Below, piece by piece: positions 1,412-31,467 of a DNA stretch of 64,000 nt; position 1 is the first letter of the stretch; each line of letters begins with the position of its first letter. The notes below the pieces were generated by a model that was not told the origin of the DNA, did no database searches, and saw nothing but the letters and a program-made list of their open reading frames with translations. The stretch is taken from positions 2,384 to 66,383 of the forward strand of contig JAUWYL010000003.1 in assembly GCA_030615855.1 (NCBI GenBank), written 5' to 3'. Source of the stretch: a bacterium. GTDB taxonomy: Bacteria > UBP18 > UBA7526. A program made the translations under genes and the position numbers.

Positions 1412-1561
1412 GCCTCACTTCCGTTCGGAGTGATCTGTGATCTGTGATCTGTGATCGGTTACTAAAGGTCACCAAGCAATCCGGCGAGCACCCCGACAGG
1501 TGTCGGGGGCGGGAGACCCGGATAGCCTTATTCTGTTCATTGTTCATTGTTCATTGTTCAT
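1412..1561. repeat. 5' leader with tandem gtgatct (x3) and ttgttcat (x4) repeats
   Basis: gagtgatctgtgatctgtgatctgtgatcgg and ttgttcattgttcattgttcattgttcattg read directly. Confidence 0.75.
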
Positions 1562-2675
1562 TGAGATAGATGCGGGGGACCCTCTCTGCAATCCTGCAGA
1601 CTATCTCATGGGGAACGGTATCTACCTTCTTCGCTATCCCCTCAACAGAGACCCTCTCCTTCCCCTGCTCTCCTATTAGAACTACCTCGTCGCCTACCTT
1701 GACATCGGGAACTTCACCCACATCTATGATCGTCTGGTCCATACAGACCCTTCCCGCGATCCTTACTCTCTTACCCTTTATGATAACTTCTCCTTTATTT
1801 GAAAGGAGACGATTATAGCCATCCTCATACCCAATGGGAAGGATGGCGATGGTGGTGTTTTTATTCGTAACATAGGTCTTTCCGTAACTTATAGTAGCAC
1901 CTTTCTTAACCCTCTTGAGATATGTCACCTTACTCTTAAGGCTCATCACGGGATGGAGGTCCAGGGATCTTGAGACATATTCTGAAGGATAGATGCCATA
2001 GAGGGCGAGTCCGGGCCTTACCATATTGAAGTAGCTCTCTGGGAAGTTTAGGACCCCGGCTGAGTTTGCCGCATGCCTTAAGGGAATATCTGCTTTCTCT
2101 CCTTTCAGTTTTTCTAGAACCTCTTTAAACCTTCTTATCTGCTCTTTAGTAAAGCTTTTATCCTCTTCATCCGCTGTTGAGAAATGGGTAAAGATCCCCT
2201 CCACTTCCAGTTCGGGAATCTTTACCACCTCTTTAATTAACTTCAGGGCCCTCTGGTAAGGAACCCCGGTCCTCCCCATCCCAGTATCTACTTCAATGTG
2301 GATCTTGAGCCTTTTCTTCAACCTCTTACATTCTTCTGCTAAAGCAAGGGCGATCTCTTTGGTGCATATCGTTTGGGTAATATCCTTCTCTATGATCCCG
2401 GATGCTTTCTCAAGCATGGTGGGACCCAGGATGAGAATGGCTGATTCGATCTCTTCTTTACGAAGGAAGAAGGCCTCAAAGGGAGAGGTTACACCAAAGT
2501 AATTCACCCCTTCCTTCTCCAGGGCCCTTGAGATCTGGACCATCCCATGGCCATAACCTTGGGCCTTAACGATGGCCATGATTCCAACATCTGGGCCTAC
2601 TCTTTTCTTAATCTCCTTGAAGTTATGGACCAAGGCACCTAAATCAATCTCTGCCCAGGTGGATCGGCTGTCCAT
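1551..2675 (-). CDS. alr: alanine racemase
   Basis: 374 aa. PLP-Lys motif region IMAIVKAQGYGHG. Overall architecture of bacterial Alr. Confidence 0.85.
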   Translation of the reverse strand: MDSRSTWAEIDLGALVHNFKEIKKRVGPDVGIMAIVKAQGYGHGMVQISRALEKEGVNYFGVTSPFEAFFLRKEEIESAILILGPTMLEKASGIIEKDITQTICTKEIALALAEECKRLKKRLKIHIEVDTGMGRTGVPYQRALKLIKEVVKIPELEVEGIFTHFSTADEEDKSFTKEQIRRFKEVLEKLKGEKADIPLRHAANSAGVLNFPESYFNMVRPGLALYGIYPSEYVSRSLDLHPVMSLKSKVTYLKRVKKGATISYGKTYVTNKNTTIAILPIGYEDGYNRLLSNKGEVIIKGKRVRIAGRVCMDQTIIDVGEVPDVKVGDEVVLIGEQGKERVSVEGIAKKVDTVPHEIVCRIAERVPRIYLNEQ

Positions 2676-2819
2676 TTTCCCTCACTCTGTTCGGGAGTTA
2701 ACAGTTTACCCGTCCCGACATCCGTCGGGACTGTTTACCGTTTACCGTAAACCGTTCCAGCCAGAGGCTGGTCCGCCTTTGGCGGAAACCGTAAACCCCA
2801 TCTTGCCTCGCTTATCAGA

Positions 2820-4181
2820 TCATTCTGCTCTCTTGGCTAAGTTCTCGAACTTGGTGTATTCCTTTATGAAAGCCAGTTGCAGTGTTCCAGTGGGACCGTT
2901 GCGCTGCTTTCCGATATTTATCTCTGCAATTCGCTGATCCGCTGGAATGTCCGGATTATAGAGTTCTTCCCTAAAAATAAAGGCCACCAGGTCGGCATCC
3001 TGTTCAATGGCGCCACTCTCTCTTAAATCAGAAAGGCGGGGTCGTGGATCTTGCCTCTGCTCTGACGCCCGGGATAATTGGGATAGAGCAACTACCGGGA
3101 CATTCAGCTCTCGGGCTAAAGACTTCAGAGATCTTGAGATCTCTGAGATCTCCTGTTGCCTGTTCTCTATTCTCCCTGAACCAGACATAAGTTGAAGATA
3201 GTCGACGATTATTAAACCGATATTATGTTCGGCTTTCAATCTTCTTGCCTTGGCCCTCACTTCCCAAACACTTATGGCTGGAGTATCGTCTATGAATATT
3301 GGCGCTTCGGCCAACCTTCCGGCAGCAATGGTCAATTTCGGCCAGTCGGATTCTGATAGATAACCGGTCCTCACCTTCTGGGCATCGACCCTTGCTTCAG
3401 AGCAGAGCATCCTCTGGACTAATTGATCCATTGACATCTCCAAGGAAAATATAGCAACCGGGATTTTCTCCTCCACCCCGGCCTTATGGGCGATCCCCAA
3501 GGCAAAGGAGGTCTTCCCCATACTGGGCCTTCCCGCAATGATTATTAATTCAGAACCATGCAATCCAGAGGTTTTCAGGTCAAACTCATTATAGCCGGTG
3601 GGAATGCCAGTGACATGCTCCTTCTTGGCATATAACTCCTCGATGGTCTGGAAACTATCCTTTATGATGTGCTTTAATAGTACGAAGTCCTGCCTTATCT
3701 TCTCCTGGGTAACGGAAAAGATTATCTTCTCCGCGCTGTCTACGATCCTGTCCACCTCTTCTGCGCTTTCAAAACTCAGATTCTTTATCTCATCACAAGC
3801 ATTAATCAGTCCCCTCAATATCGCCTTCTCTAATACGATCTTGGCGTAGTATTCCACATTAGCTGCCGTAGGAACGGAGTTTATCAGTTCTGTTAAGTAG
3901 GCTGCTCCCCCAATGGCCTCCAGGTCTCCCTTCCTCCTCAGTTCCTCAGTTATGGTCACCAGATCTGCTGGCTCATTCTTCATGAAGAGATCAATGATTG
4001 CCGAATAGATCTTCTTATGGGCTTCCTTATAGAAGGGCTCCTCATTCCCCAAAACCTCGATGCCCTTTCCAATGGCCTCCTTCTCAACGAGCATGGAGCC
4101 GATTACCGATTTCTCGGCCTCAATATTCTGGGGAGGAACCCTTGCCGTCAATTCCTCTTTTCGCATTATTTCTGCGCACAT
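2820..4181 (-). CDS. dnaB: replicative DNA helicase DnaB
   Basis: 453 aa. N-terminal DnaB domain (VPPQNIEAEKSVIGSML). Walker A GRPSMGKTSFAL. RecA-like C-terminal domain. Confidence 0.9.
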   Translation of the reverse strand: MCAEIMRKEELTARVPPQNIEAEKSVIGSMLVEKEAIGKGIEVLGNEEPFYKEAHKKIYSAIIDLFMKNEPADLVTITEELRRKGDLEAIGGAAYLTELINSVPTAANVEYYAKIVLEKAILRGLINACDEIKNLSFESAEEVDRIVDSAEKIIFSVTQEKIRQDFVLLKHIIKDSFQTIEELYAKKEHVTGIPTGYNEFDLKTSGLHGSELIIIAGRPSMGKTSFALGIAHKAGVEEKIPVAIFSLEMSMDQLVQRMLCSEARVDAQKVRTGYLSESDWPKLTIAAGRLAEAPIFIDDTPAISVWEVRAKARRLKAEHNIGLIIVDYLQLMSGSGRIENRQQEISEISRSLKSLARELNVPVVALSQLSRASEQRQDPRPRLSDLRESGAIEQDADLVAFIFREELYNPDIPADQRIAEINIGKQRNGPTGTLQLAFIKEYTKFENLAKRAE

Positions 4182-4317
4182 CTCTTACCTCCTTTTATAC
4201 ACGGATTATCACGGATTGTTTACGGATTCGCACAGATTAAAAGTAAATTTTAACTTTTGGCTTCAGTGTCTCAGATTAGTTGTCAACTAACAGTATTTTA
4301 GCCAGTCAGACTATTTA

Positions 4318-4653
4318 TTATTTCTTTAAAGAGCGAAGTCTTAAGATTATTTTAACTAAAAGGTTTAGTTCACCGATAAGAATGAATAGGGTTCCTATGA
4401 AGCAGAGGAGATATCTTGTCTCCTCCTCCACCTCCCTCAGGTCCAGAGAGATGAGTCCGGAGATGAGGATGCCTGTTCCCAGAAGGAGAAAGATAGTCAT
4501 AAGGGAGTCGAAGAGTGTCCAACATCTGAGGAGTTCTATTCCCAGGGAGGCTGCTCCCCTACTCTTATAAAAGACCTTTAGAATAATTCCTATTATTCCC
4601 AAAAGGAGAAGACTGACTCCTCCAATAAGACCCCAGATCTGTGTTTCCGTCAC
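4318..4653 (-). CDS. hypothetical small membrane protein
   Basis: 111 aa. Two or three predicted TM helices. Sits between rplI and dnaB, where a small membrane protein is common. No recognisable domain. Confidence 0.35.
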   Translation of the reverse strand: MTETQIWGLIGGVSLLLLGIIGIILKVFYKSRGAASLGIELLRCWTLFDSLMTIFLLLGTGILISGLISLDLREVEEETRYLLCFIGTLFILIGELNLLVKIILRLRSLKK

Positions 4654-4656
4654 TAT

Positions 4657-5124
4657 CTATTCCTTTACCACCCAGACCTTTATCTTTGTCTCTACCTCAG
4701 GATGGAGTCTAATCAGGGCATGATAGATTCCCAAGGTCTTTATATTATCTACTAAGGATATATTTCTCTTATCGACATCTATTCCCTGGCTATCTAAGGC
4801 CCTCTTGATATCCAAAGGAGTGACCGAGCCGAATATCCGATCATCCTCTCCAGCCTTCACTTTCACAGTACAGGAGATATTTTCTAATTCTTTGGCTAAA
4901 GCAGCTGCCTTCTCTTTCTCCTTCTTCTTCGCTGCCTCTCTCATCCTCTTCTCATGTTCCAGAACCTTGAGGTTCTTGGGACTCGCCTCTAGGGCCAGGC
5001 CCTGTGGCATGAGAAAATTTCGGGCGTAGCCATCCTTTACTTCTATCACATCCCCAATATTTCCTAAATCCTCTATCTTTTCCTTTAAGATAATCCTCAT
5101 TTTGACCTCACTATAATTAGTCAA
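4657..5124 (-). CDS. rplI: 50S ribosomal protein L9
   Basis: MRIILKEKIEDLGNIGDVIEVKDGYARNFLMPQGLA is a classic L9 N-terminus. Confidence 0.9.
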   Translation of the reverse strand: MTNYSEVKMRIILKEKIEDLGNIGDVIEVKDGYARNFLMPQGLALEASPKNLKVLEHEKRMREAAKKKEKEKAAALAKELENISCTVKVKAGEDDRIFGSVTPLDIKRALDSQGIDVDKRNISLVDNIKTLGIYHALIRLHPEVETKIKVWVVKE

Positions 5125-5257
5125 AATAAAAACACCATTAGCTAAGAAGGTGGAATGTAGCTATCCTTAATCTATAGTGAACGATAGGGGAAGAGAAAGG
5201 AAGCAATGGTGGGATTCAAGAGGAAAAAGGAAGAGGAGTATGATGACAAAAACTTAT

Positions 5258-5527
5258 CTACTCGCCCTTAAAAGGTAATAGAGCAATACTCCTTGCCCTC
5301 TTGATTGCTCGGGCAAGCTCCCTCTGATGCCGGGCACAGTTTCCGGTAAACCTCCTGGGCTTTATCTTTCCTCGATCACTAATGTAATTCCTTAAAGTAG
5401 TGGCATCCTTATAATCGATTATCAGGTCTTTTCTGACGCAGAAGCGACAGGGCCTCTTCCTCCTAAAAAAGCGGGGACGAGCACCCCTTCTCGGTCGAAA
5501 TGCTCTCCCTCTTGCCTGATAAACCAT
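5258..5527 (-). CDS. rpsR: 30S ribosomal protein S18
   Basis: [65 protein letters not shown]. The exact start is uncertain. Confidence 0.85.
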
Positions 5528-5813
5528 TCTCTTTCCTCCTCTAACACGGATTTTTTCTTATTGCTTATTGTGTGGGTAGAAACCACGGATCAGCACGGAT
5601 TTAGGACAACGCGCTTCGCTTACCTCGTCTAAATAGGAACCTTTCGCTAATGCCCAAGAACCCTGTTTTATTCGCTCTGCTCAGAAAATGAGTCAAGTAA
5701 GTTGTCTCTTTTATTCGCTTCGCTCATAAAATAAAGAGTAAACAAGGTTCTGCCAAAAGCAGGTTCTTATTTATCCGTGTCTATCCGTGTTGTAATCCGT
5801 GTCTATCCGTGTC

Positions 5814-6233
5814 TTAAAAGGGGATTTCTTCCTCTCCTTCCTCTTCTTTAGGTAATGCTTCTTCTACTGCCTTTTCTTCAACTGCCTCTGCCCGAGGAGC
5901 AGCACTCAAGAAGTGAACCCGAAATGCTCTTATCTCAACAACACTTCTCTTCTGTCCCTCTGGTGTCTGCCAGGAGCGCTGCATCAGCCTTCCTTCCACT
6001 AAGACCGGGCTCCCCTTTTTCAAGTATTCACTGCAGACCTCTGCCTGCCTTGCCCAAGCGACGATACGTATGAAGCTTGTCTCTTCTTTCCACTCCCCGG
6101 ATTGATCGGGATATCTTCTGTTATTGGCAATGGAAAAGTTAGTTACCGCCTGTCCGCTGGGGGTATACCTCAATTCTGGATCGTGAGTTAGATTCCCAGA
6201 TATGAATACCCTATTTATATTGATTCTTGCCAT
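5814..6233 (-). CDS. ssb: single-stranded DNA-binding protein
   Basis: OB-fold N-terminus MARININRVFISGNLTHDPELRYTPSGQAV. Acidic C-terminal tail ending EEIPF. Confidence 0.9.
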   Translation of the reverse strand: MARININRVFISGNLTHDPELRYTPSGQAVTNFSIANNRRYPDQSGEWKEETSFIRIVAWARQAEVCSEYLKKGSPVLVEGRLMQRSWQTPEGQKRSVVEIRAFRVHFLSAAPRAEAVEEKAVEEALPKEEEGEEEIPF

Positions 6234-6294
6234 CTTTTATCTCCTTTCTTATGAAGAATCAATAGAGGGGGCAAGTGATAACGCGCCCTCACAT

Positions 6295-6675
6295 TTATTC
6301 TCGCCATCTCTCCCTCCCTCCTCTCCTTTCATATTCTTGAACTCTCGGTCTATATCTTTTCGGCTTCACCTTCTTTGGTTTTGGTTTTCGCTCCTCTATC
6401 CTCACGCTCAGGTATTTGATGATCTCCTCTATTGTTCTATAGCTCCTCTCCAGGCTTTCGATAACTGAGGGGCTAACCTCTAAATTCAAAAAGCAGTAGT
6501 ATCCCTCTTCACATCCCTTTATCGGGTAGGCTAACCTCCTCACCCCCCACTCATCGAGACCCAGAAGTTTTCCCCCACCTGAAGTTATTATTCCCTTTAA
6601 CTTCTCAATGAGTTCCTTCCTCTTCTCTTCTTTCAATTCGGGATTTATTACGAATATTGATTCATACCTGTTCAT
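6295..6675 (-). CDS. rpsF: 30S ribosomal protein S6
   Basis: MNRYESIFVINPELKEEKRKELIEK...GVRRLAYPI. Lies in the rpsF-ssb-rpsR-rplI cluster. Confidence 0.9.
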   Translation of the reverse strand: MNRYESIFVINPELKEEKRKELIEKLKGIITSGGGKLLGLDEWGVRRLAYPIKGCEEGYYCFLNLEVSPSVIESLERSYRTIEEIIKYLSVRIEERKPKPKKVKPKRYRPRVQEYERRGGRERWRE

Positions 6676-6689
6676 AAGGCCTCTTTTCG

Positions 6690-6806
6690 GAGTAACCAGT
6701 AACCAGTTTACAGTTTTTGAAAGAAGTAACCAGTTACCAGTAACCAGTTCTTTACTGTAAACTGTTCGCTGGTTACTGTAAACCTCTATTCTACTATCTA
6801 TTCTTT
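6690..6806. repeat. MITE-like element with imperfect terminal inverted repeats (gtaaccagtaaccagtttacagt / actgttcgctggttactgtaaac)
   Basis: Termini shared with 32985..33245. Lies in the rpsF 5' region. Confidence 0.55.
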
Positions 6807-6823
6807 ATGTTAGCACACTAAGA

Positions 6824-7927
6824 CTATCTGGTCAAGTGAAATTTAATGGTAATTATATCTCCCTCTGCTACTCTGTAATCTTTCCCTTCTATTTTCAAAA
6901 GACCCTTCTCCCTTGCTTGGGATAGGGAACCTATCTGAATCAAATCGGAGTAGTTGATCACCTCCGCTTTAATGAATCCCTTCTCCATATCTGAATGTAT
7001 TCTTCCCGCTGCTTCCCTGACGTTTCTCCCCCCTTCCAGAGTCCAAGCGCGAAGTTTCTTCCTCTCCAAGGTGAAGAAGGTAATAAGGCGTAGTAATCTA
7101 TAACTTTCTCTAATCAACTTCTCTAATCCTATCTCCCCTATTCCCAGCTCAGCTCGAAACTGGGCGCGCTCCTCCTCTGGTAGTTCCTGCATCTCAGACT
7201 CTAATTGAGCACAGATTCCTATTGCATTATACTTCTTCAAATCTTCTGGAACTTCCTCTTCCTCACCCAGATTGGCAACATAGAGGACCGGCTTCAGAGA
7301 GAGAAGATGGTATTCTTTCAAAACCTCTCTCTCTTTTTCATTTAATTCTGGTAGTTCTCCCTGCTTGAGCGATTCCCCCACCTTCTCAAGTAACCTAAGT
7401 TCTTCCTTTGCCTCAGGGTCCTTCTTTATTTTCTCTCTTCTTTTTTCAATGATCTCCAGATCCGCCAAGGCGAGTTCCAGATTGATGATCTCTATATCTT
7501 TTATCGGATTGAGGCCTCCGGCCTGGGCTCCGCCCCAAGAGGGGCTCTGTCCCGGTGGGAGGGGCCTCTGGCCTGGAAGGTCGGGAGTGATGTGGGCAAT
7601 ATTGGGATCCGGGAAGCACCTCACGATATGGACTATGGCCTCCACTTCCCTTATCTTTGCTAAGAACCGATTTCCCAGTCCTTGCCCCTTGCTCGCTCCT
7701 TCAACCAATCCCGCGATATCCAAGAACTTAATGGTGGTTGGGGTCACCTCGGATGCCTCAATGAGCTCTTTTAACTTCGCCAATCTCTCATCCGGGACCT
7801 CCACCACCCCGATATTGGGCTCTATGGTAGTGAAGGGATATCTCTCAACCTTAGCATGTCCCCTGGTTAGGGCATTGAATAGGGTTGTCTTCCCCACATT
7901 GGGAAGTCCCACGATTCCGATCTGCAA
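6824..7927 (-). CDS. ychF: ribosome-binding ATPase YchF (Obg-family GTPase)
   Basis: LQIGIVGLPNVGKTTLFNALT G1 motif. C-terminal TGS domain. Start is most likely the TTG at 7927, which follows the conserved leader with its GTGAGG Shine-Dalgarno. The tracked ORF extends to 7951 by translating that leader. Confidence 0.8.
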   Translation of the reverse strand: MQIGIVGLPNVGKTTLFNALTRGHAKVERYPFTTIEPNIGVVEVPDERLAKLKELIEASEVTPTTIKFLDIAGLVEGASKGQGLGNRFLAKIREVEAIVHIVRCFPDPNIAHITPDLPGQRPLPPGQSPSWGGAQAGGLNPIKDIEIINLELALADLEIIEKRREKIKKDPEAKEELRLLEKVGESLKQGELPELNEKEREVLKEYHLLSLKPVLYVANLGEEEEVPEDLKKYNAIGICAQLESEMQELPEEERAQFRAELGIGEIGLEKLIRESYRLLRLITFFTLERKKLRAWTLEGGRNVREAAGRIHSDMEKGFIKAEVINYSDLIQIGSLSQAREKGLLKIEGKDYRVAEGDIITIKFHLTR

Positions 7928-8084
7928 GATAAGCCTCACTTCGTTCGGCAAGACGCAGATTCAGACAGATGTCTGCGGATTCAAACGGATAATTCGTCGA
8001 AAAGGAGTTTTCCGTCTGCATTCGCCACAATCCGTTTGCATCCTTTTTCAAAAATTAATATAAATAAAAATTGGCCAAGAGGCC

Positions 8085-8315
8085 GATGAGACAGGATACT
8101 AGGTGATTAGGAGATTAGGATTTGGAAACTGGGATATTTGGATATTAGGAACGCCTTTGTCCCCAATCCCCTAGTCCCCTAATCATCCATCCTCCGTAGC
8201 AGTTGCACTGCTACTGCGGAGGACGGGCCAAATCCCAGTCTCCCAGTCACCCAATCTCCTAAATTTACTAATCCACCTAATTATTCTGTTCACCGTTCAC
8301 TGATCACCGATCACC
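8085..8315. repeat. ~230-bp imperfect palindrome centred on hairpin tcctccgtagcagt-tgca-actgctactgcggagga
   Basis: Flanking arms (ttaggagattaggatttggaaactggg / cccagtctcccagtcacccaatctcctaa) are reverse complements. Lies between hppA and ychF. Confidence 0.55.
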
Positions 8316-8319
8316 GGAA

Positions 8320-10383
8320 TTAGAATATCCTCTCAACCAGTGCCATAAGGTGCTCATTGAGAAATAGGATAACGGGCGAGAAGACCAGGGAGACAATGGC
8401 CATGAGCTTCAATAGAATGTTCAAAGAGGGTCCGGCGGTATCCTTGAAGGGATCCCCTACCGTATCCCCGATAATAGAATCCTTATGGACTTGAGAACCC
8501 TTTCCTCCCAAGTTTCCTTCCTCAATGTACTTCTTGGCATTGTCCCAGGCACCACCAGTATTGGCGAGCATGATGGCCAAAGGGACACCGGTCACTAAGG
8601 AACCGATTAGAAACCCGCCCAGGGTCTCCACTCCCAAAAGGATGCCAATTATGAAGGGGATGATGACCGCCATGATCCCGGGAACAATCATCTCCCTTAG
8701 AGCGCCCCGGGTAGTGATGTCTACGCATTTATAGGAGTCAGGCATCACCTTCCCTTCCATGAGGCCTTTTATCTCCTTAAACTGCCTCCTCACCTCCTCC
8801 ACCACCTTATGAGCCGTCCTCCCCACGGCCTGCATGGTCATTGAGCAGAAAAGAAAAGGAACCACTCCCCCTATAAATAATCCGGCAACCACCTTTGCCT
8901 TGAGGCAGTCGATGAGGGTGAGGTTCACTACTTTAGAATAAGCGACGAACAAGGCAAGAGCAGTCAGGGCAGCGGAACCGATGGCGAATCCCTTTCCAAT
9001 GGCAGCCGTGGTATTCCCCACGGCATCCAGCCTCTCCGCCCTCTTTCTCACCTCTGGCCCCATACCAGCCATCTCGGCAATCCCGGCCGCATTATCGGCA
9101 ATGGGACCATAGGCATCGACCGCCACGGTCATTCCCGTTATGGATAACATGCCAATGGCAGATAAGGCGACTCCGAAGATCCCTTCTAACCAGTAAGCGA
9201 TAATGGTCGCCAGGCCAATGGCCACCATGGGAAGGGCAGTAGATCTCATCCCTATCGCCAATCCTTGAATGATATTGGTTGCCGGACCAGTAGTCGTTGC
9301 CTGGGCGATCTGACGCACCGCTTTTCCAGAGGTGAAATACTCTGCAGTGAATCCCACAACGAGACCAGCTACCAGACCGGCTAAAACACTGAAAAAGGTA
9401 TTGAATATTTTCCAGGATTCGTTATACCAGTAAGTAGTCAGAATGAAGGCCCCAATTATCAAGGCCAGGGCGCTCGATACCATACCGTTGCGCAGTGCTC
9501 TCTGAGGATCCTGGCCCTCCTTCATTCTCACGAAGAATACTCCAATAATGGAAGCGAGGATTCCCCAGCCAGCCAATAGCAGAGCAAGCATCATCCCCTT
9601 GGTATTGAGTGCTGCAGCAGCGATGATTAGACAGGCGATGATGGCCCCCACATAGGACTCATATAGATCAGCGCCCATGCCCGCCACATCTCCCACATTG
9701 TCGCCCACATTATCGGCAATGACTGCGGGATTCCGGGGGTCGTCCTCTGGTATTCCTCTCTCAACCTTTCCCACCAGATCAGCACCAACATCCGCAGCCT
9801 TAGTGAAGATTCCCCCTCCCACCCTGGCGAATAAGGCCACCAGGGAAGCGCCCATAGAAAATCCCACGATGAGTGAAGTAGCCTCTATGATTCTATTCGA
9901 TAATTCCATCTCTCCTTTACCAATGAAGAGTAGAAAGACCAGGGAGAGGCCTAATAGGCCAAGGGAAACCACAGAGAGGCCCATCACCGCTCCTCCGGGA
10001 AAGGCGATGGAAAGCGCCTCGTTGAAGCTCTTCTTCGCTCCCTGGGCAGTACGGGCATTGGACTTGGTGGCGATCTGCATCCCAAAGTAGCCAGCCAAAA
10101 GGGAGAAGAAGGCGCCCACTAAGAAGGCCAAAGCGGTCTTCTTCGCCACAGCGAAGAAAAGGATTAAGGCGATAGCCAGGATGAAGAAGGCGATCGCCTT
10201 ATACTCTCGATATAAAAAAGCCATGGCTCCCCGATGAATGCTATCCGAGATCTGAACCATCCTCTCACTTCCCGCATCCTTCCTCAGGATTCTTCGGGAG
10301 AGAATGAGAACGAAGAAGAGACCCACTATCCCACAAGCCAGGGCAGCTATTAAAGATGTTAAATCACCGAATATCGGAATCAT
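8320..10383 (-). CDS. hppA: membrane-bound proton- or sodium-translocating pyrophosphatase
   Basis: 687 aa polytopic protein. Signature motifs [19 protein letters not shown] and DNVGDNVGD. Confidence 0.9.
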
Positions 10384-10450
10384 CTCTCCCTCCCTTCGGT
10401 CGGAGTGATCTGTGATCAGTGATCGGTGATCTGTATTTTTTGTTCACGGT

Positions 10451-11020
10451 TCATGGTTCACTGACATTATATTTATTCATAGCGGGGATAATTCCTTCTT
10501 TCACAAGAAGGATCAGAGCCTCCCCTGCTCTATCTATCGCTTTTTTAACTAATAAATTTTCTTCTCTTGTAAAATTCTTAAGGACGTAATCTTTAGGATC
10601 TATTCTTTGAGAAGGCCTTCCAATCCCTATGCGCAAGCGAGGAAATTCATTACTTTTTAAATATCGAATTATGGATTCCAAGCCTTTATGGCCGCCAGAT
10701 GTACCTTTTTTCCTTATTCTTATTCTTCCTAAAGGAAGGTCGATGTCATCACAGACAATGATCAGATTCTTCAAAGGAATCTTCAGGCCTCTAACTAAGG
10801 AGGCCGCTGCCACTCCAGAGTTATTCATAAAGGTCAGGGGTTGGGCAAGAACGATCCTTTTCCTTCCTATCCTTCCCCTTCCCATAAGGGATTTATATCT
10901 TTTGGTCTTTAAGTCGACCTTTAGTCTTCTGGCCAGGGAATCGAGGACCCGGAAGCCTAAGTTGTGACGACTCTTCAGATATCTCTTCCCCGGATTCCCC
11001 AGGCCGAGGAAGAGAATCAT
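10451..11020 (-). CDS. pth: peptidyl-tRNA hydrolase
   Basis: MILFLGLGNPGKRYLKSRHNLGF. 4-bp overlap with upstream rplY. Confidence 0.9.
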   Translation of the reverse strand: MILFLGLGNPGKRYLKSRHNLGFRVLDSLARRLKVDLKTKRYKSLMGRGRIGRKRIVLAQPLTFMNNSGVAAASLVRGLKIPLKNLIIVCDDIDLPLGRIRIRKKGTSGGHKGLESIIRYLKSNEFPRLRIGIGRPSQRIDPKDYVLKNFTREENLLVKKAIDRAGEALILLVKEGIIPAMNKYNVSEP

Positions 11021-11775
11021 TTCTTCTTTTCTTCTGCCTTCGGTGCTTTCTCTGGCTTCTTCTCTTCCTTAGCAGGAGGCTTGGCCTCTTTTACCTCCCT
11101 AGGAGGCGGAGCTGGTTTCTTCTTTGCTTCCTCTGCCTCCTCTGGTGGCACCTCCTTCTCCTCTCCGATTACCTCTGGCTCGGCCACCACCTCCTCTGGG
11201 GTGGGTGGGACCACCTCCTCCACTGTAGGAGGTACAATAGAGACTACGGATTCTTCTCCATCTGCCAATATCTCGATATCACCGATTACTCTCAAATCCT
11301 TGACGTGCAGAGAGTCCCCAATCCCTAATTCTGAGACATCGACGGAAATGGACTCCGGGATCTCAGTGGGGAGGCACTCCACCTCTATCTCCCTCAATCT
11401 ATGCTGAAGTATTCCTCCCTCTTTTACCCCAGGAGCCTCTCCCCTCACCTCAATGGGAACCGAGGCCTTTAACCTCTCTCTCAGGGATATCTGGCAGAGG
11501 TCAACGTGGAGAAGATCTTCCCTCACGGGATCGGTCTGCAGGTCCTTTACAATGACCGTCCTTGTCTTATCTCCCACCTTTAAAGATATGATGACATTCT
11601 CCCCTGCTTCAGAAGAGAGGGCTCTCTCCAAGTCCTTAGTATTTACAATCAGGGATTGGGCTTTCTCTTTTCCTCCATAGAGTATGGCCGGGATATAACC
11701 TCTTCTTCTCAGTCTTCCCGAGGAGCCCTTCCCCGTCTTCTCCCTGATCTCGGCCTCTAAACTTACTTTCTCCAT
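11017..11775 (-). CDS. rplY: 50S ribosomal protein L25 / general stress protein Ctc
   Basis: N-terminal L25 domain (RRRGYIPAILYGG) with a Lys/Glu/Pro-rich C-terminal extension. Lies in the conserved glmU-prs-rplY-pth cluster. Confidence 0.85.
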   Translation of the reverse strand: MEKVSLEAEIREKTGKGSSGRLRRRGYIPAILYGGKEKAQSLIVNTKDLERALSSEAGENVIISLKVGDKTRTVIVKDLQTDPVREDLLHVDLCQISLRERLKASVPIEVRGEAPGVKEGGILQHRLREIEVECLPTEIPESISVDVSELGIGDSLHVKDLRVIGDIEILADGEESVVSIVPPTVEEVVPPTPEEVVAEPEVIGEEKEVPPEEAEEAKKKPAPPPREVKEAKPPAKEEKKPEKAPKAEEKKK

Positions 11776-11796
11776 TCTTCCTCACTCCGTTCGGAT

Positions 11797-11882
11797 ACAC
11801 GGATTTGCACGGATTACAAAACGGATGAGCACGGATTAAATCAGTGCTAATCAGTGTAATAAAATCCGTGCTAATCAGTGCT
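11797..11882. repeat. cacggatt / aatcagtg k-mer repeat array upstream of rplY
   Basis: cacggatttgcacggattacaaaacggatgagcacggattaaatcagtgctaatcagtgtaataaaatccgtgctaatcagtgc. Confidence 0.7.
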
Positions 11883-12841
11883 TAATCAAAGAGGGAGCTT
11901 ACTGACTCTCCCTTGTAAATGCGTTTTATTGCCTCTCCTAAGAGCGGGGCAACAGATAGAACCTTTATCTTCTTGAGCCTCTTCTCCTTTGGCAGAGGAA
12001 TGGTATCAGTGATTATCACTTCCTTAATTACCTTCTCCTTTAATATCTCTATTGCTGGCGGAGAGAAGACCCCATGGGTGCAGGCAGCAGAGATCTCCCT
12101 TGCTCCCTCATCTTTCAAGGCCTTTACTGCCTTTATTAAGGTTCCCGCAGTATCTATGATATCATCGACAATGACCAGGTTCTTATTCTTTACTTCACCG
12201 ATGACATTCATCACTGTCGTCTTTCCCGATAGATCCCTCCGTTTATCAATGATGGCTAAAGGAGCCTTCAACCGCTTGGCATAGAACCTCGCCCTAGCTA
12301 CCCCACCAGCATCTGGAGCCACAACCACGAACCTCTTCTTCTTGAGATATCTGCAGATGCTTGGGGTAGCGAAGAGATGATCCACCGGGATATCGAAGAA
12401 GGACTGTATCTGAGCAGCATGTAGATCCATGGTAAGCACCCTATGGGCCCCAGAGCGGGCGATGAGGTTGGCCACCAGTTTGGCGGCGATGGAGACTCGG
12501 GGCTCCACCTTCCTATCCTGCCGGGCATATCCATAGTAGGGTAGAACAGCGGTGATCCTCTCTGCCGATGCCCTCTGGGCGGCATCGATCAAGAGCAATA
12601 GTTCCATCAGACTCTTATTCACTGGAGGACAGGTGGGCTGAAGAATAAAGACATCCTTTCCCCTTATATTCTCTAATATCTTGACATAGGTCTCCCCATC
12701 TGGGAACTGGGTGACCTCTGCTTTTCCTAAAGGAATCTTCAAATATCTGCAGATCTCCTTTGCTAACTCTGGATTGGCATTTCCCGTAAAGACCTTCAAC
12801 TTATCCTTCATCCCGTTTCCTCCTTTGCAATTATAACACAC
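11882..12841 (-). CDS. prs: ribose-phosphate pyrophosphokinase
   Basis: 319 aa. PRPP synthetase N- and C-domains, with PRPP-binding loop VDDIIDTAGT. Confidence 0.9.
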   Translation of the reverse strand: MCYNCKGGNGMKDKLKVFTGNANPELAKEICRYLKIPLGKAEVTQFPDGETYVKILENIRGKDVFILQPTCPPVNKSLMELLLLIDAAQRASAERITAVLPYYGYARQDRKVEPRVSIAAKLVANLIARSGAHRVLTMDLHAAQIQSFFDIPVDHLFATPSICRYLKKKRFVVVAPDAGGVARARFYAKRLKAPLAIIDKRRDLSGKTTVMNVIGEVKNKNLVIVDDIIDTAGTLIKAVKALKDEGAREISAACTHGVFSPPAIEILKEKVIKEVIITDTIPLPKEKRLKKIKVLSVAPLLGEAIKRIYKGESVSSLFD

Positions 12842-12892
12842 GAATCTATATGAATCAGAAACGAATTCACATGAATCTTTGACTTATTCGTG

Positions 12893-14281
12893 TCATTTCG
12901 TGTTTCTTTTTCGCTTCTGTGACCTCTTCTTTGCCCAGTCCTTTATATTCCTCTGTCTTCCCCGAGCAATGGCCAGGGCATAAGGGGGAACGTCCTCAGT
13001 AATGGTGGAGCCAGCTCCGATCACCGCTCCTCTCCCAATTTTGACTGGAGCAATGAAGTTGGTATTGCTTCCCACGAACACCCCATCAGAAATCGTGGTG
13101 GGATACTTCTTGAAGCCATCGTAGTTACAGGTGATGGTTCCTGCCCCGATATTGATCTCATCCCCTAAGGTAGCATCCCCAATGTAGGACATGTGGGCCA
13201 CCTTGGACTCTCTTCCAATACTTGACTTCTTTATCTCTACAAAGTTCCCGATCTTGGCTCTCTTCCCGATCCTGCTCTTTGGCCTCAGGTGGGCATAGGG
13301 GCCGATTCTGGCCTCTGATTCTATGATGCTATTCTGAATGGATGAGTTCTTGATCTCAACCTTATTGGCCACTCTACTATCCCTTATCTGGACCGCGGGG
13401 CCGATGATACAGTCTTTTCCAATTCTACTCTTGCCCTCAATTATGGTGAAGGGATAGATTACGGTATCCCGATCGATCTCTACCTCCTGGTCAATGGTAG
13501 TAGTGAGAGGATCAACGATGGTCACCCCATTGAGCATGAGCCTATCCAGGATGTGCTCCCTCATGATCCTATTGGCCAAGGCAAGATCCTTCCGAGAGTT
13601 AATCCCGATGATCTCATCTGACTCATCCGTGGTATAGGCACTGACCTTATGGCCCTTCTTGGTCAAGACCTCAATGGCATCTGTTAGGTAATACTCCTCC
13701 TGGACGTTCTCCGGCTTTATCTTCTCTAAGGCCTGGAAGATGGCTTCCTTCTTAAAACAGTAGGTCCCGGCATTCACCTCCTCATTGGCCAGTTCGATTA
13801 TCGTGGCATCCTCCTCCTCTACTATCTTACGGATGGTTCCATCCCCATGCCTGATGACCCTCCCATATCCTGTAGGAGGCTTCAGGATGGCAGTAAGAAT
13901 GGTGGCCAGGGCATCCTTCTCTCTGTGGGTCTCGATCAGTCCCTTCAGGGTCTGGGTTGTTAAGAGCGGGGTGTCCCCGCTTAAGACCAGAAGATCCCCT
14001 TTGAATTTAGTGAGGTCTTCTCTGTATTGGGCCAGGGCATGGCCGGTACCCAGCTGCTCCTTCTGCCAGATGTAATCTACCCTTTTGCCCAGGGCCTCTT
14101 TAACTAAACTTCCTTTATATCCAATGATGACTATCTTCCGATCAATATTTAGCTCTTTTAATCGGTCGATGAGATATTCTATCATGGGCTTGCCACAGAC
14201 CTGGTGCAAGACCTTGGGCAATCTGGACTTCATTCTCGTCCCCTCGCCCGCTGCCAGGACAATGGCCACAATACTTTTCAT
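12893..14281 (-). CDS. glmU: bifunctional UDP-N-acetylglucosamine pyrophosphorylase / glucosamine-1-phosphate N-acetyltransferase
   Basis: 462 aa. N-terminal LAAGEGTRMKS nucleotidyltransferase motif. C-terminal left-handed beta-helix hexapeptide repeats. Confidence 0.9.
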   Translation of the reverse strand: MKSIVAIVLAAGEGTRMKSRLPKVLHQVCGKPMIEYLIDRLKELNIDRKIVIIGYKGSLVKEALGKRVDYIWQKEQLGTGHALAQYREDLTKFKGDLLVLSGDTPLLTTQTLKGLIETHREKDALATILTAILKPPTGYGRVIRHGDGTIRKIVEEEDATIIELANEEVNAGTYCFKKEAIFQALEKIKPENVQEEYYLTDAIEVLTKKGHKVSAYTTDESDEIIGINSRKDLALANRIMREHILDRLMLNGVTIVDPLTTTIDQEVEIDRDTVIYPFTIIEGKSRIGKDCIIGPAVQIRDSRVANKVEIKNSSIQNSIIESEARIGPYAHLRPKSRIGKRAKIGNFVEIKKSSIGRESKVAHMSYIGDATLGDEINIGAGTITCNYDGFKKYPTTISDGVFVGSNTNFIAPVKIGRGAVIGAGSTITEDVPPYALAIARGRQRNIKDWAKKRSQKRKRNTK

Positions 14282-18062: not shown

Positions 18063-18192
18063 TTGACATTTAAGAATTGAACATTTTGTTAGAAATTGGA
18101 AATTAGCCCCTCGCATTTGCTCGGGATAAACCTTGTCCCGAACCTTTAGGTGAGGGATAATTAGAAATTTAATAGAGTTGTCATTTCTCATT

Positions 18193-21396: not shown

Positions 21397-23396
21397 TATT
21401 CCTTCCTGTGTTTCACAGTCATTCTGAACTCCACGCTTCTCCCCCTTCTACTCAGATGGGCATCGCTCACCGCGACTTCCGTGAAATAGTCTGAGGCCTC
21501 AAGAACCCTTTTGAAGCGATCGACGAGAGAGAAGTCGGGGAGTGAAGTGCTTCCCCTTATTCTGGTCTCGTCCCAGTCAATGGAAAGGTCCTCTAAACTT
21601 ATTTCCAAATCTTGGGGAGTGAGGGAGGAGATTTCTTTCAGGATAGTCAGAGAAGAAAATTCTCTTGGTGAGAGGGCAAGGTCTTCTTCTCTCTTCTCTA
21701 AACTGCTCTTCATCTGGACTAAGGGATCGACAATATTGGTGACTTCAGGAAAGGTTTTTTTGAAGACTAAGCGAATCTCCTTTTTTAGTTTCGCGCTTCT
21801 TTTATTCTTGAGGTAGAGATGGAGATAGAAGTCCAGAAGGCCCAGGAGAAAGATGGAAAGAAGTAGGATGGTGGCTGGCTTAAGAAGGGGCCGGGCCTCC
21901 TCCAATCTCTTGATGAGGGGCTTCTCCTCCCGGATGAAATTAAGGGATGCCCTGGTCCTGGCCATTCCACGCAAGGCAATCCCCATCGCCTGGGGGAGGA
22001 GGGGTCTAGTTTTCTCTAAAGTAGAGCTATCTAGCGTACTAGAGATCTCCCTTAAGGAAGGAGTAAGAAGCTCCTTTAGGCGCAAGAAAAATGGTCTAGG
22101 GAGGGATAGCTTAAAGAAAGGATTGAAGAGAGAGGTTTCTATATTGAGGCTCTTCTGGAAGTATTCAACTATTTCGGGCAGGCGGGCACTTCCTCCAGTC
22201 AATAGGATTTTTTCTATACTCTTATCTGGGTAGAAAGCCAGGAAGGATGAGAAGGTATGCTCTATCTCTTTTATAATTTCATCCAGAACAGGCTCTATCG
22301 CCTTTAACTTCTCCTCATCGAGCTCTTCCCTCTGGGGCAGAGGCCCTTCTGGGCCGGAGGCCCTCTTTAACTTCTCCGCCTCTTTGAAGCTTACCCCAAA
22401 TCTCTCTGCCAAAACCTGGCTGACGTTATCCCCGGCCTTAGGGATACTCCGAGTGAAGAAGAGTCTCCCCTCACTTATAATATCGATTATTGTCTGGCCT
22501 GCTCCAAGATTGATAAGGGCAACGATCTCTTTATCCTCTTTCAGGGCATAGATATTGAAGAGGCTAGTACTATCAAGGTCCACAACCTCTGGCCTAAGCC
22601 CCGCCTTATCCAAAATCCTAAGGTGTTTTTCGATCACTTTCTTGTTGAAGGCAAAGGCTAAGACCAGGGTCCTGTCTGGGAGACGATCATCTACGATATA
22701 GAAATCAATAATCGCCTCTTCCAGGGGAAATGGGAGATGGGGCTCTAACTCATACCTTATTACCTGGCGGATCTTCCTTGAACCCTTAAAGGGCAGGGAG
22801 AGCCTCTTAATTACAGAAGAGGAGGCAGGAAGGGAGGAGATTACTCTTTCTTTTTCTCCTTTAACCCCGCCCATTGGTAAAGGGGCGGGGCGAGCCTGGG
22901 AGAGGAGTTCGGCTATTGTTCGGACAATTATCTCCTCCTCTGCTTCACCCTTCTCTTCCCTGGGAATCTCCTTCTCCCAGAAGTTAAGGAGTCTCACTCC
23001 CCTTCTGGTCTTCAATAACCGGGTAACTTTTATACTATTTGTCCCGATATCTAGGCCCAGGGCCTCTTTCCCTTTTAGGAATTTCTTTACCTTTACTCCT
23101 TTTATTTTCGAACGAAGTGAGAAAACAAGGTTCTTGAGTGTAGCGAAAGGCTTTCTTATTTTATGAGCAAGGCGAATAAAACAAGGTTCTGTGAAGCAGG
23201 TTCTTATTTTGGCCAGACCCTTCTTTATCAGGGGGTTTAACCTATTCCGAACGAAATGAGACATCTTCTGGAAGACGGAAAGAAGAAAGCCTTTTACACG
23301 AAGAAGAAGAGTCTTACTTTTAGTAAAAATAGTGCTCGTTAGTCTCTTCATCCTTCCCATCTTTTCTTTTAGATTGAGTTCCCGAATCTTAAACAT
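21396..23396 (-). CDS. GspL / PilM-PilN-like fusion protein
   Basis: Actin-like ATPase N-domain (LGLDIGTNSIKV...), internal TM helix (LLLSIFLLGLLDFYLHLYL) and a periplasmic PilN/GspL-like tail. The first ~100 codons of the tracked ORF translate interspersed repeats (23100-23220), so the true start may lie near 23070. Confidence 0.55.
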   Translation of the reverse strand: MFKIRELNLKEKMGRMKRLTSTIFTKSKTLLLRVKGFLLSVFQKMSHFVRNRLNPLIKKGLAKIRTCFTEPCFIRLAHKIRKPFATLKNLVFSLRSKIKGVKVKKFLKGKEALGLDIGTNSIKVTRLLKTRRGVRLLNFWEKEIPREEKGEAEEEIIVRTIAELLSQARPAPLPMGGVKGEKERVISSLPASSSVIKRLSLPFKGSRKIRQVIRYELEPHLPFPLEEAIIDFYIVDDRLPDRTLVLAFAFNKKVIEKHLRILDKAGLRPEVVDLDSTSLFNIYALKEDKEIVALINLGAGQTIIDIISEGRLFFTRSIPKAGDNVSQVLAERFGVSFKEAEKLKRASGPEGPLPQREELDEEKLKAIEPVLDEIIKEIEHTFSSFLAFYPDKSIEKILLTGGSARLPEIVEYFQKSLNIETSLFNPFFKLSLPRPFFLRLKELLTPSLREISSTLDSSTLEKTRPLLPQAMGIALRGMARTRASLNFIREEKPLIKRLEEARPLLKPATILLLSIFLLGLLDFYLHLYLKNKRSAKLKKEIRLVFKKTFPEVTNIVDPLVQMKSSLEKREEDLALSPREFSSLTILKEISSLTPQDLEISLEDLSIDWDETRIRGSTSLPDFSLVDRFKRVLEASDYFTEVAVSDAHLSRRGRSVEFRMTVKHRKE

Positions 23397-27033: not shown

Positions 27034-27038
27034 TCATG

Positions 27039-27969: not shown

Positions 27970-28003
27970 ATCGGTGAATCGGGGAATCGGTGAATCGGTG
28001 ATT
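27970..28003. repeat. tandem repeat (unit ~9 bp, atcggtgaa / caccgattc) in the gspJ-gspK spacer
   Basis: atcggtgaatcggggaatcggtgaatcggtgatt read directly. Confidence 0.7.
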
Positions 28004-28054
28004 TTCCCCGTTTCTCCCTTTCTCCCTGTCTCCGTTTCATAACCCACTCTCACT

Positions 28055-28690: not shown

Positions 28691-28734
28691 TTTTACACAC
28701 CTGCCTACTTTCACACCTGCCTGCTTTCTCCATT

Positions 28735-29575: not shown

Positions 29576-29590
29576 GCCACAAGCTTCTTT

Positions 29591-29638
29591 GTAGCCTGGA
29601 GCCTGGAGCCTGTAACCTGTAGCCTGTAGCCTGTAGCC
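29591..29638. repeat. tandem 8-bp repeat (cctgtagc / cctggagc variants, ~6 copies) between gspG and gspH
   Basis: gtagcctggagcctggagcctgtaacctgtagcctgtagcctgtagcc read directly. Confidence 0.75.
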
Positions 29639-29639
29639 T

Positions 29640-30080: not shown

Positions 30081-30229
30081 AAGAACCCTCCTATAATTAA
30101 TTTGTTAGTTTGCTGGTTATTTGATACCTTATCAACTTATTAACTTATTAACTTATTAACTTGTTAACTAACCAATTATCCAACTATTTTACTAATCTAC
30201 CTAATTTACTTAGCCGACTTTGTCGGCTA

Positions 30230-31441
30230 TTAGCGGATGGCTTGGCTCATTTCAAAGATAGGTAATAGAATGGCTAAGACGATAAATCCCACCACAAGTC
30301 CCATTAAGAGTATAAGAATGGGTTCCAAGAGAGCAGTCAGGGTACCAACCGTGGCCTCCACCTCGCTATCATAGGTATCCGCTGCCTTATAGAGTAAATC
30401 CTCTAAGTTCCCGCTCTTCTCTCCAGAGGCGATCATTCTGACCACGATGGGAGGGAAGACCTTATTCCTGGATAAGGGAGCAGCCAGGCTCTCCCCCCTC
30501 CTCACGCTCTCCCCCGCCTCTCCAATGGCTTCTGAGAGAACCCGATTGCCCACGATATTCTTGACAATCTCTAAGGAACTCAAGAGGGGAACCCCGCCAG
30601 CCAGAAGGGTAGCTAAGGTGCGTGAGAACCTGGCCAGGGCGATCCCCTGGTTCAGAGGTCCAAAGAGAGGAACTCTTAGCCTCAGTCGATCGAAGATTTT
30701 CCCTCCTCCTTCTGTTTTGATATATCTCTTCATCCCAAAGATAAAGACAATGACTATTAGTAAGAGAAGCCACCAGTAGCCTTTGAAGAAGTCGCCTAAT
30801 TTAATCAGGATGATGGTGGGGAGGGGAAGAGAGGCCTGAAAAGTGGTAAATAGGCTAGTCACCCGAGGAATGACGAAGGTAAAGAGAAAGGATAGAACCA
30901 GGATGCCGATGGCCACAATGAAGAGGGGGTAGGCTAAAGCAGCCCTTATTCTATTCTCTAAGCGTAGGTGCTTCTCATTATAATCTGCCAAGCGTTCCAG
31001 AACAAGTTCTAATGCTCCGGCACTTTCACCGGCTCTAATCATACTGACATAGAGGCCAGAAAAGACCTTAGGATATTGGCTAAGGGCACTAGAGAGGGTG
31101 GAACCTGACTTTACCCTTTCGCGAACATCAACCAGGGCCTTCTTCAAAGTCTGATTCTCTAACTGCTCGCTCACCCCAGAGAGGGCCTCAGTGAGGGGAA
31201 GGCCGGCACTCAATAAAGTGGCCAGCTGCCGAGTAAGAATGGCTAAATCTCTTATCCTTACCCTCTTAAATATCCTTATCTCTCGTGAGGGAATAAGGGA
31301 GGGAAGAGATTCCTTTAAGGAGGTGAGATGTAAACCTTCTTGATGGAGCTTAGCCCGGGCTTCGGCAGGACTATCGGCATCGATGATTCCCCTCTTCCTC
31401 TTTCCCGACTTATCAAGGGCCTGATACTCAAAGACTGCCAT
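30230..31441 (-). CDS. gspF: type II secretion / type IV pilus platform protein GspF
   Basis: 403 aa. Two GspF/PilC repeats, each with cytoplasmic domain plus TM helices (e.g. GLPLTEALSGVSEQLEN, GGVPLLSSLEIVKNIVGNRV). Confidence 0.85.
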   Translation of the reverse strand: MAVFEYQALDKSGKRKRGIIDADSPAEARAKLHQEGLHLTSLKESLPSLIPSREIRIFKRVRIRDLAILTRQLATLLSAGLPLTEALSGVSEQLENQTLKKALVDVRERVKSGSTLSSALSQYPKVFSGLYVSMIRAGESAGALELVLERLADYNEKHLRLENRIRAALAYPLFIVAIGILVLSFLFTFVIPRVTSLFTTFQASLPLPTIILIKLGDFFKGYWWLLLLIVIVFIFGMKRYIKTEGGGKIFDRLRLRVPLFGPLNQGIALARFSRTLATLLAGGVPLLSSLEIVKNIVGNRVLSEAIGEAGESVRRGESLAAPLSRNKVFPPIVVRMIASGEKSGNLEDLLYKAADTYDSEVEATVGTLTALLEPILILLMGLVVGFIVLAILLPIFEMSQAIR

Positions 31442-31467
31442 CTCTCCCTCGCTGTCGCTCGGAGTAA
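31435..31467. repeat. 33-bp direct repeat, copy B (ctgccatctctccctcgctgtcgctcggagtaa), spanning the gspF start codon and leader
   Basis: Identical 33-mer also at 32952..32984. Together they bracket the HEPN/MNT cassette. Confidence 0.85.

Follow-up and report, generated by a model that had tools for sequence, protein, structure and literature searches.

A stem-loop of 17-18 nucleotides containing the Shine-Dalgarno sequence before unrelated genes of an uncultivated bacterium: a candidate repeat-borne ribosome-binding module

In ROSE and fourU RNA thermometers and in related leaders that sequester the Shine-Dalgarno sequence (SD), upstream pyrimidines pair with the SD in a short helix that is weakened by non-canonical pairs. 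Among intergenic repeats, Neisseria REP2 and Borrelia IR-A contain a promoter, a ribosome-binding site (RBS) and an ATG (reviewed in PMC3184786). MIRUs, Correia and ERIC MITEs, REP/BIME and pneumococcal BOX are small interspersed intergenic repeats transcribed together with genes; some have a preferred orientation, some affect expression, and BOX elements have a modular internal structure of variable copy number (PMC3184786). Direct repeats of the heptamer TAACTGA are found before start codons in Beggiatoaceae, Cyanobacteria and Bacteroidetes in a patchy distribution that suggests horizontal spread, and a post-transcriptional role has been proposed for them; in BOGUAY, about 90% of the repeat-bearing spacers are without an SD (PMC4679880). 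Finally, the mini-hairpin DNA GCGNAGC/GCGNNAGC described by Hirao is extremely stable as DNA and much weaker as RNA, and it is known as a physico-chemical motif and from initiation sites on single-stranded DNA (ssDNA) and promoters of phage N4, not in the role of an RBS module (PMC13037366). Here we describe a short leader shared by unrelated genes in 64,000 nucleotides (nt) of a bacterium of the GTDB lineage UBP18, UBA7526 (assembly GCA_030615855.1, contig JAUWYL010000003.1, positions 2,384 to 66,383), a stretch that we refer to as the window. The leader is a stem-loop that contains the SD and stands beside arrays of short repeats, and we propose it as a candidate structured RBS.

By layout, the leader can be likened to REP2: it is a multi-copy intergenic repeat directly 5′ of unrelated genes, with predicted stem-loops and with an RBS up to the start, and it reaches the starts of unrelated genes as REP2 does (six gene leaders and one truncated leader). 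Common descent of the two in sequence is improbable, given the taxa. No promoter was found inside the module, the rpsF promoter lying upstream of it. Unlike REP2, the conserved unit is only 17-18 nt long, coupled to variable, independently exchanged k-mer arrays, and present in several phyla and in phage. The TAACTGA repeats share with it the placement of heptamer arrays a few nt from the starts of unrelated genes, including ribosomal-protein genes; they differ in that here a 17-nt SD hairpin stands between array and start, many different units of 7-10 nt are used, and inverted arms form long hairpins. Tandem TAACTGA itself occurs on neither strand of the window. Like MIRUs, MITEs, REP and BOX, the element is a small palindromic or modular intergenic repeat, but its defining feature is an RBS hairpin beside swappable arrays. 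No terminal inverted repeats with target duplications, as in MITEs, were recognized in it; unlike REP/REPIN, it is without a GTAG-type head, and no RAYT was found among the 46 window proteins scanned; and unlike MIRUs, no open reading frame (ORF) runs through the unit.

Leader copies, fold and position

The leaders before mlaE, alr, rpsF, ychF, hppA, rplY and gspF that were singled out in a preliminary description of this DNA all re-extract as quoted from the 70 nt before each start, the rpsF copy being a truncated variant. The genes behind them had been called unrelated, and Pfam confirms their identities (MlaE, alanine racemase, S6, YchF, H+-PPase, L25/TL5 and GspF). Inspection of all intergenic spacers of the window added three copies to these seven, two of them orphans and one degenerate. 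The copies are listed here with their scores from a covariance model, all on the minus strand:

1412-1429 (-), mini-hairpin RBS of mlaE, TCC-GA-AC-GGAA-GT-GA-GGC, ATG at 1409-1411, 20.4 bits
2679-2695 (-), mini-hairpin RBS of alr, CCC-GA-AC-AGA-GT-GA-GGG, ATG at 2673-2675, 23.0 bits
6676-6692 (-), truncated leader of rpsF, CTCCGAAAAGAGGCCTT followed by ATG, without the inner stem
7933-7949 (-), mini-hairpin RBS of ychF, GCC-GA-AC-GAA-GT-GA-GGC, TTG start at 7925-7927, 26.3 bits
10388-10404 (-), mini-hairpin RBS of hppA, TCC-GA-CC-GAA-GG-GA-GGG, ATG at 10381-10383, 26.6 bits, -11.3 kcal/mol
11779-11795 (-), mini-hairpin RBS of rplY, TCC-GA-AC-GGA-GT-GA-GGA, ATG at 11773-11775, 24.9 bits
23397-23416 (-), degenerate relative of the leader before pilM/gspL, CCGAGTGACAAAGGGACACG followed by ATG, 10.7 bits
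31446-31463 (-), mini-hairpin RBS of gspF, TCC-GA-GC-GACA-GC-GA-GGG, ATG at 31439-31441, 24.7 bits
32963-32980 (-), orphan copy with the same sequence as the gspF leader, followed by a 4-codon ORF, without a real gene behind it
55637-55653 (-), orphan copy near the ychF leader in sequence, GCC-GA-AT-GGA-GT-GA-GGC, then ctatc and TTG, followed by a 9-codon ORF, 21.4 bits

The true start of ychF is the TTG at 7925-7927, not the start of the longer ORF.

To describe the shared fold, we aligned 17, and later 18, leaders from the window and its relatives, which were picked by their position before start codons and not by pairing. The alignment supports a stem-loop of 17-18 nt, 5′-YCC-GA-NC-GNA-GN'-GA-GGR-3′, with the structure (((..((....))..))). 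Its 3′ half (G-N'-GAGG-R) is the SD and ends 1-6 nt, mostly 4-6 nt, before the start codon, and its 5′ half contains an anti-SD-like (C)UCC, whose CC forms base pairs with the SD's GG. Between this basal stem and an apical stem of 2 base pairs lie two G.A/A.G mismatches, and the apical loop is GNA or GNNA. With 18 leaders, 92.2% of the cells are paired compared with 76.8% in shuffles (0/500), a statistic that is inflated by kinship and copying among the leaders and drawn from a small sample; slid controls reached at most 62%. Changes on both sides were found in all 5 pairs. Positions G4, A5, A11, G14 and A15 are invariant, and the other positions co-vary. The minimum free energy (MFE) structure computed with ViennaRNA is the supported fold for most copies (alr, ychF, hppA, rplY and gspF of the window, and hppA of the relative L083). 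A different hairpin, CTCCG-AA-CGGAG abutting the SD, had been proposed in the preliminary description and did not hold up (62.7% paired vs 61.8% in shuffles); the supported fold embeds the SD. Alignment rows contain about 11 G.U cells and one A.C, and this wobble asymmetry points to the sense strand, whether the structure forms in mRNA or in ssDNA of that strand.

Because the hairpin is kept by compensatory substitutions, comparison of orthologous leaders argues for selection on the fold containing the SD. The inner stem of the gspF leader changes from GC-GACA-GC to AT-GATA-AT in L175 and L176 within near-identical flanks, and that of alr from AC..GT to AT..AT in L163 and L162. Across genomes, the inner-stem pairs of rplY are AC..GT, AC..GC or GC..GC. 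In hppA of L083, CCC/GGG has become CTT/AAG, with GAGG lost and the hairpin kept.

The motif is strongly enriched in the window. The 17-mer with at most 3 mismatches gave 5 matches against 0.17 expected, and a strict structure-aware motif gave 10 sense and 0 antisense matches, with about 1.1 sense and 0.6 antisense matches expected from dinucleotide shuffles; in 2.2 megabases (Mb) of unrelated genomes, the strict motif occurs 19 times per Mb-strand. A covariance model, R1, yielded 10 matches of at least 20 bits in these 64 kilobases (kb) and 4 in the 2.2 Mb of unrelated DNA, a density about 85-fold above that of unrelated genomes. A scan of GTDB genomes based on HppA returned distant taxa (at most 60% identity among the matches listed), which were used solely as a negative control. 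The preliminary description had staked its claim on the motif being more frequent before genes than in random intergenic sequence. In keeping with this, 6 of the 8 strong sense-strand matches stop no more than 8 nt short of a gene start, intergenic DNA making up 8463 nt of the window (binomial P = 3 × 10−7). SD-type versions, with a CC/GG outer stem, are present in sense orientation only and almost exclusively at start codons; versions at other sites have different outer stems, such as TCT/AGA or TAT/ATA.

These results contradict the idea that there is no special element here, only an extended SD or purine-rich leader preferred by the lineage, or a chance resemblance. GAGG and GGAG are indeed ordinary SD cores, and many window genes use a plain AAGGAGG. 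However, the enrichment is far above both shuffles and unrelated genomes, the 5′ half covaries with the SD, the hppA leader of L083 keeps its fold (CTT..AAG) while GAGG is lost, and copies are identical through their flanks. We find this explanation barely credible.

Arrays and their exchange among relatives

As the preliminary description had noted for several of them, k-mer tandem arrays abut the leaders; Tandem Repeats Finder confirmed them, with units of 7-10 nt. Whole spacers fold as long hairpins of inverted k-mer arrays (z = -3.5 to -5), and the mini-hairpin begins 1-2 nt past the foot of these long hairpins, the base of the rplY array hairpin being 1 nt away. The arrays beside leaders are as follows:

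1430-1456 (-), GATCACA tandem array of 3.9 copies, abutting the mlaE mini-hairpin
6693-6790 (-), long array hairpin with inverted arms GTTTACAGTAACCAG ... CTGGTTACTGG in the 5′ untranslated region (5′ UTR) of rpsF, z = -4.2
10405-10434 (-), GATCACA-type tandem array, abutting the hppA mini-hairpin
11796-11881 (-), long array hairpin with inverted arms CACGGATT / AATCCGTG between prs and rplY, -37.3 kcal/mol, z = -4.2
31467-31645 (-), long hairpin of a G/T-rich and a C/A-rich arm, upstream of the gspF leader, z = -3.6

A sigma-70-like promoter that is conserved across relatives (TTGACC-17-TAACAT, 6807-6835, minus strand) lies upstream of the rpsF array and leader, and the module is therefore in the 5′ UTR. 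Scanning for the promoter consensus gave 19 matches vs 15.2 expected, which is no excess, and a crude measure of tandem-array density across loci was too strict to inform.

Homologues of L25 delimit a tight clade of uncultivated bacteria (73-100% identity, with the next relatives below 60%). Metagenome-assembled genomes of the clade include GCA_030619985.1, GCA_022012655.1, GCA_018903055.1, GCA_030616365.1 and GCA_002478245.1; its 449-kb contig Ga0452208_000002 appears to be without the repeat system. Syntenic loci were taken from eight relatives, and a metagenome scan based on YchF yielded two close relatives. The rplY leader is full in five genomes, of a short form in three and absent from one. 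The ychF leader is present in 4 of 10 genomes (the window, L083 and L163/L164) and absent in L082, L162, L165, L166, L168 and L171. A prs leader was found in L163/L164 only and the rpsF leader in the window only, relatives using AAGGAGG at that site. Array modules, in turn, are exchanged between loci and genomes, and the mini-hairpin stays at a given gene. The GTTTACAGTAACCAG...CTGGTTACTGG module, for example, has two copies in the window, one before rpsF and one beside the 33-kb orphan (32981-33180); L162 has it before alr, and L166 before rplY. At these non-orthologous sites the module is up to 97.8% identical over 89 nt, compared with about 88% in flanking coding DNA.

Duplicated leaders extend beyond the hairpin. 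The ychF leader and the orphan at 55637-55653 have flanks in common that reach through the start codon. A 33-nt exact direct repeat (31435-31467 and 32952-32984, minus strand) comprises the leader hairpin and ATGGCAG, running through the ATG, and its two copies bracket an inserted segment between gspE and gspF with a HEPN/nucleotidyltransferase (toxin-antitoxin-like) pair (genes 31646-32678). This pair is absent between gspE and gspF in L174-L176, where gspF follows gspE directly. The earlier suggestion that a mobile repeat delivers a ready-made RBS gains from the shared flanks, the orphans and the gain and loss of leaders at orthologues. It does not stand in its simple form, with a single mobile repeat ending in the leader: one and the same array module adjoins four different mini-hairpins, and an orthologous mini-hairpin is joined to differing arrays.

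Mobility also underlies the main rival explanation, that of a selfish repeat in which the mini-hairpin is an ssDNA structure of the GCGNAGC type needed for mobilization or recombination of the repeat, for example as the recognition site of an enzyme, and in which its use as an SD is incidental. Several apices are exactly GCGAAGC, GCGACAGC, GCGATAGC or CCGAAGG and thereby match the mini-hairpin DNA consensus, with G-N-A/G-NN-A loops closed by C-G; the exact consensus is found in gspF of the window and in rplY of L167 and L168, and CCGAAGG in hppA and prs. Many leader copies, unlike mini-hairpin DNA, have A-T, T-A or other closing pairs. A selfish repeat would also fit the recurrence of this apex in further palindromic repeats of either strand and in elements lying in-frame in genes, the orphan copies, the array modules joined to the hairpin always at the same junction in many combinations, the 33-nt leader duplicate around the inserted toxin-antitoxin-like cassette, and the exact 17-mers that a bacterium and a phage of very different GC content share (see below). 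On the other hand, SD-type versions are sense-only and almost all at start codons, and at orthologous genes the hairpin is retained and co-varies as the neighboring arrays are replaced. The scan of 46 window proteins revealed no transposase, RAYT, recombinase or Y1 transposase domain, and neither target-site duplications nor defined termini were recognized in the array/hairpin repeats, in which inverted array arms are present. Weighing these points, we consider a selfish repeat unlikely.

Other repeats and features accompany these modules. About 150 nt upstream of ychF (7928-8080, minus strand, in the window; 3577-3729 in L083) are 94.8% identical between the two, the YchF proteins being merely 75% identical, and L082, a closer relative (84%), is without this whole segment. 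A second type of shared leader, composed of an array, GTGTATAAAAGGAGGTAA(G)AG and ATG (4182-4202 and 58392-58411, minus strand), precedes dnaB and the gene at 57132-58391, both times with arrays of the AATCCGTG/AATCAGTG type upstream. A further repeat family with the ends GAACCTTGTT / AACAAGGTTC and hairpins with AAGCGAAGCG loops (42657-43085, 5125-5813 and 6234-6294, minus strand) lies between genes as tandem copies, each about 100 nt long, and recurs in L162, L163, L166 and L171, in either orientation. Palindromes with a GA-GC-GAA-GC-GA apex or an imperfect CCCTCAC...CGAGGGG are inserted in-frame in coding regions and resemble Rickettsia palindromic elements:

about 15660-15720, in-frame palindromic insert in IspE
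18100-18175, in-frame palindromic insert in the N-terminus of a TPR protein
23097-23190, in-frame palindromic insert in the N-terminus of pilM/gspL

The IspE of the window has a 15-amino-acid insert relative to that of L162, which has a different insert of 24 amino acids elsewhere. A tRNA gene (38088-38440, minus strand) is split by a group I intron (38156-38393; Rfam RF00028, 81.9 bits), and the 3′ half of this tRNA, ending in CCA, is just upstream of a T2SS-C-like gene (37245-38087); in L176, a called ORF with a TTG start begins a few nucleotides after the homologous tRNA 5′ half. Almost all ORFs of the window, and all of its roughly 51 genes, lie on the minus strand, and purine and GC skew are strong (GC skew of -0.03 to -0.19 on the plus strand in every 4-kb bin), and the relatives' loci are unidirectional too.

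A candidate ribosome-binding module

In this clade, a position-specific and strand-specific hairpin containing the SD lies in transcribed spacers, is kept by compensatory change and is part of a repeat system with swappable arrays. With moderate confidence, we read it as a repeat-borne structured ribosome-binding module of a modular intergenic repeat system. The module would serve as a plug-in, or portable, translation initiation region, in which a weak local hairpin may hold the SD in a defined, partly occluded state beside a large structured element. Held in this way, the SD could be protected from wrong pairing with the C-rich array arm beside it, and ribosome access could be both moderated and insulated. 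New copies would be made by duplication or recombination and might replace the native SD of a gene, much as Neisseria REP2 supplies an RBS and an ATG. The initiation regions (-35 to +20) of the six genes with full hairpin leaders have a mean MFE of -12.2 kcal/mol, compared with -6.0 kcal/mol in the other 42 genes (P = 6 × 10−4). The preliminary description had also offered a shared translational-control element, and the fold containing the SD, kept by compensatory substitutions, speaks for this; translational control itself is what we infer.

Several observations weigh against a ribosome-binding role, in addition to the small and interrelated sample behind the shuffle statistics. The hairpins are of modest energy (-3 to -11 kcal/mol) with weak z-scores (0 to -2.5), and the inner pair is mismatched in three leaders (rplY of L162, hppA of L167 and hppA of L162/L163). 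The predicted unpaired probability of the SD region is 0.49 vs 0.56 in other genes, a difference that is not significant (P = 0.29). Spacing is irregular in two cases: mlaE has just 1 nt between GAGG and ATG, and in L162 the hairpin before spoVG lies about 25 nt upstream of a separate SD. The apex GA-NC-GNA-GN'-GA is found in other palindromic repeats of the clade, on both strands, away from starts and with other outer stems, and two of the leader copies are not followed by a gene. The fold could therefore belong to the repeat family as such and not to translation. The function is moreover one that we infer from sequence.

The occlusion of the SD brings to mind an RNA thermometer or zipper, in which a hairpin with non-canonical pairs would melt on a change in temperature or another physical cue. 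As in ROSE and fourU, the SD of the leader is paired to upstream pyrimidines, here an anti-SD-like CC, through a short helix that is broken by G.A mismatches, and its stability is modest. Unlike ROSE and fourU, the leader is carried by a repeat system and repeated before many housekeeping genes (ribosomal proteins, PPase, Alr and secretion), not heat-shock or virulence genes, and it matches them neither in sequence nor in Rfam. Neither a thermometer family nor any other Rfam match to the leader was found at the gathering threshold in the whole window or at E ≤ 1 in positions 1-13000. A thermometer seems to us highly improbable.

A further possibility is that the hairpin, possibly together with the arrays, is an operator bound by a trans-acting RNA-binding protein that co-regulates the translation of housekeeping genes, as was proposed for the TAACTGA repeats of Beggiatoaceae (PMC4679880). 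Apart from this precedent, an operator would account for the invariance of G4, A5, A11, G14 and A15 and for the conserved G-N-A loop, which go beyond the needs of folding, for the sequence-level identity across distant genomes and for the overlap with the SD. Gene membership, however, is unstable among close relatives, unlike that of a regulon, some copies are orphans, and a candidate binding protein was not identified. The GGA loop required by CsrA (GGA/GGAA) is present in only 3 of 18 leaders, most loops being GAA, and the kink-turn (K-turn) bulge is missing, the internal loop being symmetric (2x2) with invariant tandem GA columns. The ideas of a CsrA site, a K-turn and a sigma-54 promoter were dropped on sequence grounds. 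We regard an operator as quite unlikely.

Occurrence beyond the clade and what it would mean

Two of the four R1 matches in the 2.2 Mb of unrelated genomes are in metagenome-assembled genomes (MAGs) of Candidatus Omnitrophota. In L048, from Omnitrophota, a heptamer array is followed by ACCGAGTGAAACGAGGT, taagc and ATG (15690-15760), and in L100 the hairpin stands before an S6-like start. Exact scans of IMG/VR identified CTCCGAACGGAGTGAGG, with heptamer arrays upstream and a start codon downstream, in L180 (twice), L183 and L187 (62-70% GC). Of these, L180 is a tailed-phage module of 70% GC with head-tail adaptor and tape-measure genes, and L183 and L187 are viral contigs of 62-63% GC. At L180 (6080-6740), L183 (1740-1810, minus strand), L187 (10470-10640) and L048, the layout is a stop codon, a heptamer array, (a terminator-like hairpin), an inverted array, a hairpin of the CTCCGAACGGAGTGAGG type and a start codon; in L187, the first codons of the gene are still part of the array. 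Since Omnitrophota and viral contigs have the same order of array, hairpin and start, the arrangement is not confined to this clade. Exact 17-mers are common to a bacterium of 46% GC and a phage of 70% GC.

Not every form of the sequence behaves in this way. TCCGACCGAAGGGAGGG had no matches in the IMG/VR scan, and TCCGAGCGAAGCGAGGG had 17, in very diverse contigs (L195-L211, 33-70% GC), mostly without arrays and often at the apex of longer stems. The GAGCGAAGCGAG apex is therefore widespread and not diagnostic alone, and its hairpin may be a structural module that is reused in many settings. In a short-query blastn, cultured phages and plasmids had chance-level matches to the leader only, and in the searched literature the motif sequences occurred only in unrelated primers.

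The mini-hairpin might also be the attachment or recognition site of a recombination or templated-synthesis system, one that installs and swaps k-mer-array hairpin cassettes right before start codons and is passed horizontally between distant bacterial phyla and their phages. We hold this to be rather unlikely. If it were true, the system would be a new class of mobile "plug-in UTR" cassette, and the diversity of the arrays and the exact conservation of 17-mers between 46% and 70% GC would be products of its machinery.

Repeats that deliver an RBS and an ATG, and heptamer arrays near start codons, are already known (PMC3184786, PMC4679880). What we did not find in Rfam or in the searched literature is the combination of a co-varying 17-nt SD hairpin, independently exchangeable array hairpins and an occurrence across phyla and in phage. 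For the annotation of MAGs, such repeats matter in that they mislead ORF callers, through over-extended starts, tiny orphan ORFs and in-frame palindromes in genes. If the leader is indeed a structured ribosome-binding module, part of the initiation signal of housekeeping genes in these bacteria would come from an exchangeable repeat module with a selected fold and not from gene-specific sequence, a natural example of portable, structured ribosome-binding sites. The covariance model R1, together with array detection, would then be a handle for charting a cross-phylum repeat system that includes phages, and would offer a link to the unexplained heptamer arrays before start codons in Beggiatoaceae and cyanobacteria.

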